Source: a virus. From it: a stretch of 59,849 nt of DNA. Position numbers and translations under genes: made by a program. The DNA lies in IMG/VR virus record IMGVR_UViG_3300045988_094266. One strand, written 5' to 3'. Positions 3,585 to 12,560 of the stretch are shown piece after piece. The stretch's first letter is position 1. Every line of letters starts with the position of its first letter. The notes below the pieces were generated by a model. It was not told the DNA's origin. It did no database searches and saw nothing but the letters and a program-made list of their open reading frames with translations.

Positions 3585-3752
3585 GTTAAATGATACCACA
3601 TTTTCGGGAGAAAGTCAAGCTGTCAAGTTGCACAAATTTTCAATTCAAAATTGTTGAAAATGACAATAGAAGAAAAATTCGGACCGCGGCGCACGCAAGC
3701 GGTCCGCTCAAAATTTTGCATAAAAAAATCTCCCCATAAGGGGAGATTTTTC
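3585..3752 (-). promoter_or_regulatory. Intergenic cassette copy 1: terminator, GC hairpin, inverted repeat, promoter
   Basis: Read on the minus strand in this order. Terminator ATCTCCCC/GGGGAGAT. GC hairpin CGGACCGC..GCGGTCCG followed by AATTTTT. TTGCACAA..TTGTTGAA inverted repeat. Then -35 TTGACT, 17-nt spacer, -10 TATCAT. Confidence 0.5.
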
Positions 3753-3753
3753 T

Positions 3754-4114
3754 TTAGTTGAGAATTATTGGATATGCCTTGCGAATAACCACCGTAACCA
3801 TGGCCGGGGGAGTGTCGCACAAGAAACGGTCATTTCTGATAAAACGACCAATTCCCATATTCTGCCACAAAGTCCGGTTTACATCCTCGTATCGTAGGGT
3901 ATTATACTTGGAAAGTTTGATATGCCAATCATAGATAAAGGAACCATCTTCCGGCATGGTGTAATCTGGAGCCCGCTTATAATTTCTCGTATGTTCTGCG
4001 GCTCTGCGCTCAAGATCATTTGTCGTGCCAATCTTGAGAATATAGCGCCCCTTTTTGTCGATATAATGTCCGACATATAGAAACTCTTTTCCCCTTGTCT
4101 GTAAACTAACTATA
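3754..4114 (-). CDS. GIY-YIG nuclease-like ORF lacking a canonical start codon
   Basis: The stop-to-stop frame encodes YVGHYIDKKGRYILKIGTTNDLERRAAEHTRNY, a GIY-YIG motif. The only ATG in this frame is far internal. An in-frame ATA follows an AAAGAGG RBS. Confidence 0.45.
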
Positions 4115-4130
4115 ACTTACCTCTTTTCTG

Positions 4131-4158
4131 GTAGGGCCGGGGTAGGCCGACCCTACCA
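4131..4158 (-). terminator. GC-rich hairpin between genes (terminator-like)
   Basis: Stem GGTAGGG ... CCCTACC. Confidence 0.35.
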
Positions 4159-4160
4159 CG

Positions 4161-4478
4161 TTATTTCTTCGGTTTACGCTTTTGCACAAGCGTCAACTCG
4201 AAACTATCCCCACCAATAGAAAACGCAATCTGTCTTTCCTTGTTAGTAATAGACAAGTCAGCGATAGAGAATTGACTGTTTTTTTCCAAAAACTCTGCCA
4301 ATTCCGCAATTATACCGCCTTTCGTGGCGTTTGGCTTGCGTTGCCGTGTAGTGAACTTATATGCGGTTGGCTGTTTGCGCGTTCCAGCATGGGCAAACTT
4401 TTGAGCGATTTTCGCCTTTTCTGGCGGTAAATCGTATTCAGTCTTTTTATCAGCCTCTACCGCTTTATCATAGGCCAA
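4161..4478 (-). CDS. Hypothetical basic protein
   Basis: 105-codon ORF with a TTG start and a GGAGG RBS. Confidence 0.5.
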   Translation of the reverse strand: MAYDKAVEADKKTEYDLPPEKAKIAQKFAHAGTRKQPTAYKFTTRQRKPNATKGGIIAELAEFLEKNSQFSIADLSITNKERQIAFSIGGDSFELTLVQKRKPKK

Positions 4479-4587
4479 TAAATCTGCCTCCTCTTCCGGC
4501 GTTAATTGCAGGGCTTTATACCTTGCAATCCGTTCAGCGTCACTAATACGACTGGATATAATATCACCCCCATATTATAAGTTAGGG

Positions 4588-4612
4588 CGGGGATTTTCAC
4601 CCCGCCCTATAC
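4588..4612 (-). terminator. Hairpin GGGCGGGG/CCCCGCCC downstream of gene 4617..5027
   Basis: The stem is stable but the U-tract is weak. Confidence 0.4.
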
Positions 4613-4616
4613 GGGG

Positions 4617-5027
4617 TTACGCCATCTTAAAAAGGGACTTGCCCTTCTTTTCCGTGCAGACCACTCGACCATCGAGTTTCAACTGCCGCACAAGGGCGGC
4701 GACCTTCTGGTTAGAATAGGCCGTCAGATCAGGAATAGCCTTAAAAATTTCCGTGCAGGTCACGCCATCGGTATCGGCATCCAGATCAGCCAGATACTCC
4801 ATAATCTGCTCCTTAAAATTCTCGTTCTCCTGCTGGGTGGAAGTCAGCTTCTTGTCACCGCTAGAGCTATTCTTCTTACGCAGAAGCTCCAGCTCATGGT
4901 CAATGACAGTAATAGCCACCTCGATGGTAGTGCCATACTTTACCTCGCCGTCAGTCAAGAGGGCCTTAATGTCTTCAAAACGCTGGGCCTTAGTAATGCG
5001 GATTTTCTTCTCGTCCATAATATACAT
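4617..5027 (-). CDS. Hypothetical protein, possibly a winged-helix regulator
   Basis: 136-codon ORF driven by three tandem promoters. The C-terminal segment resembles a winged helix, but this is only a weak resemblance. Confidence 0.55.
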   Translation of the reverse strand: MYIMDEKKIRITKAQRFEDIKALLTDGEVKYGTTIEVAITVIDHELELLRKKNSSSGDKKLTSTQQENENFKEQIMEYLADLDADTDGVTCTEIFKAIPDLTAYSNQKVAALVRQLKLDGRVVCTEKKGKSLFKMA

Positions 5028-5045
5028 CCTTTCTGGTTTTTAGGA

Positions 5046-5300
5046 CTGTCCTTGTCCTTTGATTATATTGTACCACACTATTTGGTACTTGTCAAGAGGT
5101 TTTTCAAACTTTTTTCAAGAACTTTTGCCCTTTACTTGTTTGCCCTCTCAACCTCCCTTATAGTGTAACACACTTTGGAAAGTTTGTCAAGCCCTTTTTA
5201 TTTAATTTTCAAGGTACATTGCCTTGTTTTCTGTACTTATTATAGCACATCTTCAAAGGCTTGTCAAGAGGTTTTTGAAAGATTTTTGAGAAATTCGCTG
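5046..5300 (-). promoter_or_regulatory. Three tandem sigma70-like promoters on the minus strand
   Basis: On the minus strand: TTGACA-17-TATAAT, TTGACA-17-TACACT and TTGACA-17-TACAAT, each preceded by an A-tract. Confidence 0.5.
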
Positions 5301-5379
5301 TCACTGTCTGCCGTTCGTCTCTCTCACTTTCTGAATGTATTTTACCACAAGCAAAAGCAGATTGCAAGCGTCGAATTGC

Positions 5380-10699: not shown

Positions 10700-10925
10700 C
10701 TGTCCCTCTGGACAAGTATAATATACCATACCCATAGCAAAAAGTCAAGCGATTTCGGGAGAAAATCTTTCGTCGAATTGCACAAACTTTCGGTCATATA
10801 ATTGTTGAAACTGCCAAATAAATAAAAATTCGGGCCGCGGCGCACGCTGGCGGCCCGGCGAAAAGTCAACATGGTAAAGTGCATAAAAATATTCGGCAAT
10901 CTTTGTGTAGATTGCCGAATATTTA
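10700..10925 (-). promoter_or_regulatory. Intergenic cassette copy 6
   Basis: Terminator ATTCGGCAATCT/AGATTGCCGAAT. GC hairpin CGGGCCGC..GCGGCCCG. Inverted repeat. Promoter. Confidence 0.5.
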
Positions 10926-10927
10926 TT

Positions 10928-11173
10928 TTACATATACTTTGCTTCTTCAATCAGCCCCATCAGTTCTCCTCTGCCCTTGCGTACTTCACGCAGATTGCTG
11001 GGGCTGATACAGGCTTTATACTTCCTATTGATTTTATTTGCGGCGCTCGCTTTGTCTCTTGCCTGTACGATATAGACTTTTCTGGTCTTATTGAAAGTCG
11101 CTTGATTAAGAGTGAAATATCCCATGTTCTTGCGGGTGCGGCCCATGCTGTCAGTAAAAGTTCCTCTATACAT
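10928..11173 (-). CDS. Hypothetical basic protein
   Basis: 81-codon ORF. Confidence 0.5.
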   Translation of the reverse strand: MYRGTFTDSMGRTRKNMGYFTLNQATFNKTRKVYIVQARDKASAANKINRKYKACISPSNLREVRKGRGELMGLIEEAKYM

Positions 11174-11182
11174 TTTCTTTTT

Positions 11183-11336
11183 CCTCCTATTATTTAGTCA
11201 TGAGAACAAACATATTATATTCGCTGTGCTGTGGATTAGGCTTACAGTTGTCTGCCACTATATCACACCAGCTAATGAACGCCCAGAGAAGGACTGCGGC
11301 ACAAAGGCCGCATCCTATTCTACTAATTAACCGCAT
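11183..11336 (-). CDS. Small protein with a hydrophobic or signal-like N-terminus
   Basis: AGGAGG RBS 7 nt upstream of the ATG at 11336. The start overlaps the end of the upstream gene. Confidence 0.35.
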
Positions 11337-11623
11337 ACTTTTGCCTCCTGTTCTTTTACCCATTCGCTATTGATTGTATCTTTCTTCATAGCCGCCTTAA
11401 ATTCTTCCTTGCTGGCTGGCCGCGTGTGCAGTTTACTATTGATGAACTTACTTTTAATGAAAGCCCAATGCGGCATAACTGCTTTAGATACTGCATTAAA
11501 AGCATCTACATCAAGAATGATACCATCATCCACAACGGCGCTTTCCACATTCATAGTATAACGCAAGAGCTTAACAAACTCTTTCTTATTAAACAGGTCA
11601 CTGGTGAAATACTTAATATACAT
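11327..11623 (-). CDS. Hypothetical protein
   Basis: 98-codon ORF. Confidence 0.55.
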   Translation of the reverse strand: MYIKYFTSDLFNKKEFVKLLRYTMNVESAVVDDGIILDVDAFNAVSKAVMPHWAFIKSKFINSKLHTRPASKEEFKAAMKKDTINSEWVKEQEAKVCG

Positions 11624-11659
11624 ATCTTTTATCCTTTCTCCCCGTATAGCCGTTAGGTC

Positions 11660-11818
11660 AGCTTCTTTTTAATCTACGATTTCTCCACTGGATAAATCTA
11701 CAATCCAATGATTGGGATTGACTATCTCGTGACTGGCTTTCCATCTTGCCATTGAAAGGGTGGATGGTTCATAATAGCGCATTTTCTCATTGGCTAAAAC
11801 CTGTAATTGATACATATA
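11660..11818 (-). CDS. Small hypothetical protein (about 52 aa)
   Basis: AAAGAGG RBS upstream of the ATG at 11818. Confidence 0.35.
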
Positions 11819-11849
11819 GTATACCTCTTTCTTTTAATTATTATAACCC

Positions 11850-11886
11850 TGCCTTGCCTTGTGTTTTGCAAGGCAGGGTTTATAAA
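11850..11886 (-). terminator. Terminator hairpin CCCTGCCTTGC/GCAAGGCAGGG
   Basis: The hairpin is followed by a T-rich stretch on the minus strand. Confidence 0.45.
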
Positions 11887-11889
11887 CTG

Positions 11890-12264
11890 TTATCCTCTAA
11901 TTTCTTCTTCTTGGGTCTTTGTCGCCCAATCAAAAGAGGTACGAATATCGGAAGGTCTGCGGAATTGCTCTGCTTCGGCTTCCGTTCCACCTAATGCCAT
12001 AGCATAGGCTTTCCAGTCAACCGTTCCTTTTGCGGTAGTTTCTTTATATACCACCGCTTTCGCCTTACCCTGCATTTGTACCGTGCCATATAGATAACTT
12101 GTTTTGTCCGTAGCCTTAAAAGCCTTACCTAATCTGGAGAATAGCTCTTTAGCCTTAGCCTTAGCTGCTTTCTCCGCCGCCTCCGCCGCAGACTTAGCCA
12201 TCTTAGCGGCCATATACTCCATAATAATGGCTCGATCTTCATTGGTAAAATCAATCTTTTTCAT
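11890..12264 (-). CDS. Hypothetical protein
   Basis: The ORF track gives 145 codons. The probable start is the internal ATG at 12264, which has an AAAGGGAG RBS. Two TTGACA-17 promoters lie upstream. Confidence 0.5.
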   Translation of the reverse strand: MKKIDFTNEDRAIIMEYMAAKMAKSAAEAAEKAAKAKAKELFSRLGKAFKATDKTSYLYGTVQMQGKAKAVVYKETTAKGTVDWKAYAMALGGTEAEAEQFRRPSDIRTSFDWATKTQEEEIRG

Positions 12265-12329
12265 ACTCTTTTGACTCCCTTTCTTTTTGTGGTGTGGTTC
12301 TCTTTTGTTCTGTCTGTATTGTATCAAAC

Positions 12330-12560
12330 CTTTAGCAGTTTGTCAATACCTTTTTTGAAATTTTTTAATTTTCAAAGTGCCGTGCTTTTGTCTCTGTCCT
12401 ACTGGACAAGTCCAGTTTACCACCAAAACGCTCACTTGTCAATAGTTTTTTTGAAATTTCTTTCTCTCTCTTTTGCACAAAATAAATAACATCTTGTTGT
12501 GCAGTTTGCACAAACCCTTTACGCGCGCGTATTCCTTTAGGGGCGTGCTTTCTTGCTTTC
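12330..12560 (-). promoter_or_regulatory. Two tandem promoters with UP-like A-tracts plus a degenerate TTGCACAA/TTGTGCA inverted repeat
   Basis: On the minus strand: TTGACA-17-TACAAT and TTGACA-17-TAAACT, each preceded by ATTTCAAAAAA. The inverted repeat lies at 12472-12515. Confidence 0.45.

Follow-up and report, generated by a model that had tools for sequence, protein, structure and literature searches.

Early gene regions of T4-like phages carry promoter-early stem-loop (PeSL) cassettes, in which a stem-loop terminator and a sigma-70-type early promoter are combined in one intergenic motif of about 100-150 bp (Arbiol et al. 2010, PMC2839356; Comeau et al. 2014, PMC4122927). Many copies lie between non-essential, mostly ORFan early genes, and copies are found at insertion, deletion and replacement breakpoints of related phages. 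Paired protein-binding sites at phage promoters are known from phi29, where p4 sites of the form AACTTTTT-15 bp-AAAATGTT are located between promoters A2c/A2b and A3 (PMC1904284, PMC3100819), and sites of the host regulator Spo0A lie in the early regions of phi29 and Nf (PMC2731898). Here we describe an intergenic cassette that recurs among the minus-strand genes of a 59,849-nt stretch of virus DNA (IMG/VR record IMGVR_UViG_3300045988_094266), which as a whole is referred to as the window. We consider it reasonably probable, judging from sequence, that this cassette is a composite boundary between early transcription units which carries the phased operator of one host-type regulator, in a TAG-recoded phage infecting Clostridia.

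The anatomy of the cassette was checked by reading the minus strand together with repeat, alignment and consensus scans. On this strand, a first terminator (T1) is followed by a second hairpin (T2), an inverted repeat and a promoter of sigma-A type whose -10 box is extended. T1, which directly follows a stop codon, is a terminator of generic type, T2 is located 20-35 nt past T1 and consists of a GC-rich hairpin followed by AAUUUUU, and the inverted repeat TTGCACAA-N-TTGTGCAA lies about 25 nt past T2. Seven minus-strand intergenic regions carry T1 and T2, six of which go on to the inverted repeat and promoter (cassettes A to F); an eighth site at 12473-12513 shows repeat and promoter without T2. 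The individual elements are the following, the inverted repeats being given without strand.

2668..2695, minus strand: T1 of the partial cassette G, after gene 2702..2947; 12-pair stem, then a T-run.
2619..2645, minus strand: T2 of cassette G, 27 nt, then AAUUUCC; no inverted repeat or promoter after it.
3724..3751, minus strand: T1 of cassette A, AAAAATCTCCCC-TTAT-GGGGAGATTTTT, with symmetric flanks.
3680..3706, minus strand: T2 of cassette A, then AAUUUUU.
3628..3659: inverted repeat A, N16; proximal arm exact, distal arm degenerate (TTcaACAA).
3590..3618, minus strand: promoter A, TTGACT-17-TGgTATCAT, with a TCCCGAAA box at 3602-3609 in the spacer.
5524..5547, minus strand: T1 of cassette B.
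5472..5498, minus strand: T2 of cassette B.
5422..5453: distal inverted repeat B, N16, one mismatch.
5376..5417: proximal inverted repeat B, N26, exact.
5339..5367, minus strand: promoter B, TTGCAA-17-TGgTAAAAT.
6918..6939, minus strand: T1 of cassette C, AGAGGGC-ttcg-GCCCTCT plus a U-run.
6866..6892, minus strand: T2 of cassette C, then AGUUUUU.
6814..6845: inverted repeat C, N16, exact.
6776..6804, minus strand: promoter C, TTGTAA-17-TGgTATTAT, with a TCCCGAAA box at 6788-6795 in the spacer.
7805..7830, minus strand: T1 of cassette D, immediately 3' of the SpoVT-like gene 7830..8291.
7752..7778, minus strand: T2 of cassette D, then AAUUUUC.
7700..7731: inverted repeat D, N16, one mismatch.
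7663..7691, minus strand: promoter D, TTGTTT-17-TGaTATACT, with a TCCCGAAA box at 7674-7681 in the spacer.
9452..9474, minus strand: T1 of cassette E.
9405..9431, minus strand: T2 of cassette E.
9352..9383: inverted repeat E, N16, exact.
9294..9322, minus strand: promoter E, TTGACT-17-TGgTATATT, 29 bp past the repeat.
10887..10924, minus strand: T1 of cassette F.
10831..10857, minus strand: T2 of cassette F.
10778..10809: inverted repeat F, N16; proximal arm exact, distal arm degenerate (TTcaACAA).
10720..10748, minus strand: promoter F, TTGACT-17-TGgTATATT, 29 bp past the repeat, with a TCCCGAAA box at 10753-10760 just 5' of the -35 box.
12473..12513: degenerate operator H, N16, one mismatch, with an extra half-site at 12506-12513; no T2 before it.
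12414..12442, minus strand: promoter H, TTGACA-17-TGgTAAACT, 30 bp past the repeat.

The elements thus lie where the original prediction, which had described at least six minus-strand regions of common terminator-repeat-promoter layout, had placed them, with seven rather than six copies of T2. This includes the tandem terminators ahead of the inverted repeat in the regions listed, the two inverted repeats in the copy at 5380-5460 (found at 5376-5417 and 5422-5453) and the degenerate copy near 12472-12515. Other details have to be revised. The spacer of the repeat is not a continuum of 10-25 nt, being either N16 (seven of the eight repeats) or N26 (one of eight), and the -35 box does not follow at about 10-25 bp, the measured distance from the repeat end being 8-9 bp in cassettes A-D and 29-30 bp in E, F and the 12473 site. 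A -35 box of the proposed type TTGAC(T/A) is present, as TTGACT, in just three cassettes, the others showing TTGCAA, TTGTAA and TTGTTT; all six cassette -10 boxes are of the extended TGn type. Finally, the units between cassettes are not insulated single genes, as they comprise two to five genes and 0.7-1.6 kb. Promoter A is predicted to drive 3423..3563, 2965..3417 and 2702..2947, and promoter D 7166..7630 and 6937..7125. Further consensus promoters follow some of the cassette promoters: three in tandem after promoter B (5267..5239, 5190..5162 and 5095..5067), ahead of gene 4617..5027, a second one in unit C (6610..6582), ahead of gene 5758..6549, and one after promoter H (12346..12318).

Compared to PeSLs, all six cassettes show the same union of stem-loop terminator and sigma-70-type promoter in one intergenic motif, copies recur many times (seven in 8.3 kb) between mostly ORFan genes, and they likewise coincide with breakpoints between related phages, as detailed below. 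However, the phage does not belong to the T4-like myovirus lineage, being TAG-recoded, related to phAss-1 and presumed to infect Clostridia, and no sequence similarity exists between cassette and PeSLs. The cassette moreover has a pair of terminators that includes a 27-nt hairpin of conserved structure, a phased inverted-repeat operator together with a TCCCGAAA box and, in its relatives, an optional antisense promoter. It is hence a PeSL analogue in an unrelated lineage, not a homologue, with an added operator.

With regard to the source phage, a megablast search of the region yielded Phass-1, filed under "Caudoviricetes code 15 clade", as the sole GenBank phage with any nucleotide match (59 bp at window 8770-8827). 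phAss-1 has been described as siphovirus-like with a suggested Clostridia (Eubacteriales) host, and promoters, repeats and terminators are not mentioned in that paper (PMC10607447). In the window, the plus-strand genes at 16030-54389 contain up to 98 in-frame TAGs per gene, as in the open reading frame (ORF) 32430..41156 (+) of 2908 codons, and the late genes of a second minus-strand block at 54432-59553 contain in-frame TAGs as well. Because its late genes are full of in-frame TAG codons, the phage is read as using genetic code 15, with TAG as a sense codon. Minus-strand genes between about 1400 and 14900 are nearly TAG-free, so that the cassettes presumably sit in a standard-code, early region; the GC skew changes over near 16 kb and near 54 kb. 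In-frame TAG was also seen in two small genes of the early region, 9517..9750 (-) and 9880..9950 (-), and no tRNA gene was found within the window.

Exact copies of the inverted repeat TTGCACAA-N-TTGTGCAA occur three times in the window (5376-5417, 6814-6845 and 9352-9383) versus 0.00 expected, and the exact half-site 14 times versus 1.9 expected. Twelve of these 14 half-sites fall into the 11% of the window that is non-coding, corresponding to 1.84 versus 0.04 half-sites per kb in non-coding and coding DNA, respectively. The motif is thus about 49-fold denser outside genes, the opposite of the similar frequency inside coding regions that the original prediction had named as speaking against it. 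To place these sites in a wider context, IMG/VR was scanned for the N16 form, which resulted in 44 sources with at least two copies (42 IMG/VR loci, the Phass-1 locus and the window); many of the related contigs measure 80-190 kb. Across these sources the gap between the arms is bimodal (N16 and N25-27), i.e. the two forms differ by one helical turn. Measured from an arm to the closest outward -35 box, the distance amounts to 8/9, 18/19 or 29/30 bp in 112 of 128 promoters from at least 40 related phage contigs, compared to 7 of 87 for random anchors in the same loci (88% versus 8%), and hence grows by about 10.5 bp at a time. Orthologous cassettes have kept the arms, the -35 box and the TTCCCAAAA box, with the repeat spacer having diverged. 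Within the clade, the TCCCGAAA box adopts one of two set positions: it lies within the promoter spacer, of which promoters A, C and D are examples, or it abuts a repeat arm; in promoter F it is found just 5' of the -35 box.

The bimodal gap, the quantised offsets to the -35 box and the retention of the arms while the spacer drifts support the view that the repeat would behave as a protein operator facing RNA polymerase, rather than as an RNA hairpin or as passive repeat DNA. An attenuator or processing hairpin in read-through transcripts would account for the complementarity of the arms, and in one relative (L013 7736; L-numbers denote the compared loci, phage contigs or bacterial genomes) both arms are changed to TTGTACAA with pairing retained. 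Yet, the repeat follows two terminators and precedes the -35 box, its loop would span 16-26 nt, promoter phasing is a property of DNA, and two window copies combine a decayed distal arm with an exact promoter-proximal one. We therefore regard a function of the repeat in RNA as extremely improbable.

The second conserved element, T2, shows strong compensatory covariation. Its seven window copies align without gaps, are always 27 nt long and are closed by CGG...CCG; 95% of the alignment cells are paired and five of nine pairs are changed on both sides, compared to just 25-41% pairing in shifted registers. A covariance model built from these seven copies gave 66 matches in the window and related phage loci. 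The 64 distinct copies, in an alignment that was fitted to this model, which also favours G.U pairs, show 96.8% paired cells and 132 double-change cells, values that none of 500 shuffles reached. On the gene strand, G.U pairs outnumber A.C pairs by 22 to 5, which favours RNA transcribed from this strand. Stems of 8-10 pairs give predicted stabilities between -18 and -23 kcal/mol; fold z-scores are uninformative because the sequence is GC-rich. An intrinsic terminator is expected to combine a GC-rich hairpin with a U-run directly after it in the transcript. T2 has such a run on the gene strand and not on the other one; its tail AAUUUUU begins 2 nt past the stem and is weaker or absent in some relatives. 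The simplest reading is that T2 is a second, predicted intrinsic terminator. An Rfam scan of the window gave 0 matches at the gathering threshold. Among the 100 loci scanned of 120 bacterial ones that carry the repeat, the T2 model matched in one phage-like contig and nowhere else, so T2 was found only in phage-type DNA. A CRISPR-repeat mimic and an N4-type hairpin promoter were considered for T2 and dropped, as sequence in the upper stem and loop is free to vary and promoters of host type exist.

The surroundings of T2 in related phages complicate this picture. In about half of the relatives' T2 copies that adjoin a repeat, a near-consensus promoter (TTGACA-17-TGnTATAAT) precedes T2 on the opposite strand, its -10 box ending 3-9 nt ahead of the hairpin. 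In 27 cases versus 5, this promoter points towards the upstream gene's 3' end. Where this antisense promoter is present, the repeat falls between divergent promoters with -35 boxes about 58 bp apart, and in L042, L054 and Phass-1 T2 is flanked by face-to-face promoters. Examples of such arrangements are L105 3664-3800 and 6290-6410, L042 on the minus strand (promoter start 6714) and L001 (Phass-1) 2330-2520. Where cassette B of the window has its second repeat (5422-5453), L026 and L035 have an antisense promoter instead. No antisense promoter lies between repeat and T2 in any window cassette.

Based on these promoters, T2 might not mainly be a terminator, and could instead be a hairpin at the 5' end of short antisense RNAs, a hairpin recognised by a protein, or a block separating promoters that face each other, the window copies then being promoter-less remnants. 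The orientation bias of the relatives' antisense promoters, the convergent promoters around T2 in the three loci named, the antisense promoter at cassette B of L026 and L035, where the window has none, and the fixed 27-nt length with invariant CGG/CCG closure and a semi-conserved loop would all fit such a role. The window and about half of the relatives' copies, however, keep T2 without an antisense promoter, the G.U bias favours folding of gene-strand RNA, the U-run is found on the gene strand only and no Rfam family matches. Thus, we consider a mainly non-terminating T2 unlikely, and termination by T2 remains the preferred reading.

The divergent arrangement in the relatives invites comparison with phi29 p4. 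In both systems two 8-bp arms, separated by roughly one and a half turns of the helix, lie upstream of promoters or between them, and the phage in each case has a Gram-positive host. Many relatives, though no window cassette, place the repeat between divergent promoters that differ in strength. Acting from such a position, p4 is an activator of a weak promoter and a repressor of a strong one, a behaviour that would fit the relatives' pairs of weak sense and consensus antisense promoters. On the other hand, the arm sequence differs, the window lacks a divergent partner promoter, and no p4-like family was found in a Pfam scan of 20 or a PHROG scan of 10 early proteins. Moreover, the cassette has many sites per genome instead of the one control region of p4, and its repeat also occurs in host genomes. 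By analogy, a p4-like choice between a weak and a strong promoter would be the most economical idea for the function of the antisense arm. Extended to the whole clade, a repeat-bound host-type regulator would select between the weak gene-directed and the near-consensus antisense promoter, the antisense RNA would begin with T2, and dozens of early operons would be tied to the state of the host (e.g. transition phase or sporulation), the window representing a derived form that kept operator and T2 and lost the antisense arm. We rate this scenario as rather unlikely; if true, it would amount to an undescribed clade-wide bidirectional switch in a large group of gut Clostridia phages.

Irrespective of the antisense promoters, the position of the repeat gives hints on its mode of action. 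Repeat centres near -60, -70 and -81, along with sub-consensus -35 boxes, would fit activation or a p4-like dual activator/repressor better than simple occlusion, although the sign of regulation is speculative. These centres, spaced in steps of one helical turn, resemble the placement of class I sites of CRP. In contrast to CRP, the half-sites of the cassette are 24 or 34 bp apart from centre to centre, not 11 bp, and no CRP/FNR-type protein was identified.

The presence of the repeat outside phages was evaluated with the pattern TTGCACAAA-N14-TTTGTGCAA in one genome per bacterial species. At least 120 bacterial genome loci match, a lower bound that compares with roughly 9-25 expected, the chance level being a composition estimate without matched control patterns. 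Among the matches listed, nearly all belong to Clostridia (Oscillospiraceae, Ruminococcaceae, Acutalibacteraceae, Eubacteriales and Lachnospiraceae, cultured strains included), and 108 of 120 have a single copy. When four multi-copy, mostly phage-like contigs are set aside, 92 of the 116 listed copies lie outside mechanically called ORFs of at least 100 aa. Recurrent contexts, made up of orthologous sites, among the same matches are a position between a TetR-family gene and an aminotransferase-like gene (9-11 species), a position 6 bp upstream of a consensus promoter for an ORF of about 45 aa and a ylmC/ymxH-like gene (about 10 species), and positions ahead of sigma-70-family genes. In two species (L191 3692-4300 and L126 1883-1250) the repeat is located 12 nt past the stop codon of a full-length host spoVT, followed by the promoter of the next gene. 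In Ruminococcus bromii ATCC 27255 (L165 400-3100) three copies lie in a 1.3-kb non-coding repeat region, probably a mobile element, which adjoins a tyrosine-integrase-like gene; a tRNA gene is found about 2 kb past the latter.

The inverted repeat is thus not restricted to phages. The proposal of a dedicated phage operator for one regulator stands with respect to its operator-like character, given the intergenic enrichment and phased promoter distance, and fails with respect to dedication, since the repeat is over-represented in intergenic DNA of Clostridia. This raises the question of whether the repeat is simply the site of a host transition-state or sporulation regulator that throttles or licenses early transcription with no phage-encoded circuit. 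Such a reading would be in line with the over-representation and intergenic location of the repeat in Clostridia genomes, with its conservation before the ylmC/ymxH-like operon and beside host spoVT, and with the precedent of Spo0A sites in the phi29 and Nf genomes (PMC2731898), which likewise are host-type regulator sites at early promoters of phages of a spore-forming Firmicute. At the same time, the bacterial contexts are heterogeneous and partly mobile elements, and the phages' own host-like SpoVT/AbrB proteins could bind the repeat instead. The motif is not a 0A box, which reads TGTCGAA, and the repeat is not known to match any operator; a full-text literature search for its 8-mers returned only primer noise. 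Taken together, control by the host alone is possible, if on the unlikely side, and sensing of the host state in the manner of phi29 and Spo0A is speculative.

As the cassette recurs in many related phages and the repeat is found in Clostridia genomes, one regulator probably governs the whole early programme. Speculative candidates for the protein that would bind the repeat are the SpoVT/AbrB-like proteins, a heavily promoted winged-helix protein or a host factor. The product of 7830..8291 contains an AbrB/MazE N-terminal domain with a weak SpoVT_C match and is 62% identical to host SpoVT over the N-terminal 85 residues; 9517..9750, with an in-frame TAG, is a second AbrB-like gene. SpoVT/AbrB-like genes are present in 12 related phage loci. 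Together with the repeat next to host spoVT in L191 and L126, the two phage-encoded proteins form a circumstantial context. SpoVT is a tetramer with two DNA-binding modules, which suggests that it would suit two near-palindromic arms one or two turns apart.

The winged-helix candidate is encoded by 4617..5027, located behind three tandem consensus promoters and the double repeat, and belongs to a large unannotated family. Its predicted model, a confident one (pLDDT, i.e. predicted local distance difference test score, 88.8), shows a C-terminal winged helix, for which fold searches returned only generic winged helices (E 0.007 or worse), and no match was found among the sequences of solved structures. 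The repeat lies 360-450 nt upstream of its homologues in 21 of 31 loci, and the five most divergent homologue loci keep the tandem promoters with no repeat within 3 kb. An assignment of the protein as regulator by co-occurrence was dropped, and it may be an abundant DNA-binding protein instead. TetR was likewise discarded as phage regulator, as it adjoins the repeat in 9-11 bacterial species but no TetR gene occurs in any phage locus; the TetR-adjacent sites can also be read as two TTTGT-N8/9-ACAAA palindromes.

Comparison with related phages places the cassettes at the joints of gene modules. Across window 16000..9255, the 98-kb contig of the nearest relative (L104/L241) is collinear apart from 10664..10158; there, the homology stops exactly at 10664, where the first gene past cassette F has its start codon. 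The exonuclease and HAD units appear in reversed order in L026 as well as L035. L026 also lacks the window's three-gene unit A, and its version of the cassette A operator and promoter (83% identical) stands ahead of other genes. Cassettes thus coincide with breakpoints of gene replacement and shuffling in all three comparisons, and most genes they flank are ORFans without Pfam or PHROG function in the protein scans mentioned above. Such a pattern could mean that the cassette is first of all a recombination module of the PeSL type, a block of about 150 bp that was spread and homogenised by homologous exchange, with repeat and T2 conserved by this process and not by regulator binding. The replacement, insertion and unit-swap breakpoints, the ORFan neighbours and the description of PeSLs as terminator-promoter repeats of this kind (PMC2839356, PMC4122927) would be compatible with it. 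Spreading alone, however, leaves unexplained the 10.5-bp quantised offsets to promoters on both sides, the N16/N26 alternation, conserved arms around a diverged spacer, and the repeat without T2 at single-copy intergenic sites of Clostridia, making recombination as the sole explanation quite unlikely.

According to our preferred reading of a regulated boundary, transcripts of the upstream unit would be halted by the generic T1 and the clade-conserved T2, and a new unit of two to five genes would begin at a host sigma-A-type extended -10 promoter. The element TTGCACAA-N16/26-TTGTGCAA, on a fixed face of the helix, would be the operator of a dimer of dimers or another long-span protein. As the bound protein would touch RNA polymerase or block its upstream contacts, all cassette-linked units could form one regulon, apart from the operator-free consensus promoters of the region. 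The regulator would be of host type, i.e. a host protein or a phage copy, since the repeat is common in intergenic DNA of Clostridia, with the SpoVT/AbrB-like genes as best candidates. Stretches of similar sequence, each about 150 bp long, return every 0.9-1.8 kb, so that the cassettes may double as homologous-exchange sites which shuffle early modules among related phages.

Several points weigh against this reading. Promoters and terminators are consensus predictions throughout, common descent of many cassette copies means that part of the conservation reflects inheritance rather than selection, and the T2 covariation and bacterial counts carry the limits given with them above. The U-run of T2 starts 2 nt past the stem and is absent in some relatives (Phass-1), and a fixed 27-nt length with a semi-conserved loop exceeds the needs of a plain terminator. 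A simple boundary also fails to explain why about half of the relatives' cassettes have a strong antisense promoter reading into T2, and the bacterial contexts of the repeat are heterogeneous, some being on mobile elements.

TAG-recoded gut phages are abundant but uncultivated, and the cassette provides a testable model of their early control, comprising promoters, terminators, an operator with a phasing rule and candidate regulators. An operator common to Clostridia, especially Oscillospirales, offers a clue to host range and to a possible host input to the lytic programme. Furthermore, terminator-promoter cassettes that double as recombination joints are not limited to T4-like phages, and the cassette parts could be tried as insulated expression units in Clostridia.

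Beside the cassette promoters, a second promoter class (TTGACA-17-TGnTAYAAT) has no inverted repeat immediately upstream and mostly shows an upstream TTTCAAAAA tract. Its members lie at window 5067-5267, 6582-6610, 8793-8821 and 12318-12346; the three in tandem ahead of 4617..5027 have counterparts, with three to four tandem promoters kept, in most of 31 related contigs. The promoter at 8770-8827 is set in short GC stems (GGGGTTGACAAATCGCCCC...GGGGCG) and is 93% identical to Phass-1.

Other features of the window were noted in passing. An iteron-like repeat cluster at 584-890, composed of ATTTCATAGTATTCTGATAATACTATGAAATT and variants 30-68 bp apart, may be a replication origin. The palindrome CCGATCGG occurs in eight copies versus 0.17 expected (window 1294-2611 and 14048), seven of them in a mostly non-coding stretch that follows the last T2 hairpin. 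A 103-bp direct repeat (57054-57156 and 57777-57879), 80% identical between its copies, lies in the second minus-strand block. In the early region, 13068..13505 and 13490..14257 (-) encode a PTH2 peptidyl-tRNA hydrolase and a microbial-type poly(ADP-ribose) glycohydrolase, for which host-takeover or anti-defence functions are plausible. Gene 3754-4076 (-) has a weak T5orf172 match under the Pfam cut-off; no start codon is evident in its reading frame, which overlaps a second ORF, so that a frameshift or an unusual start may be involved.

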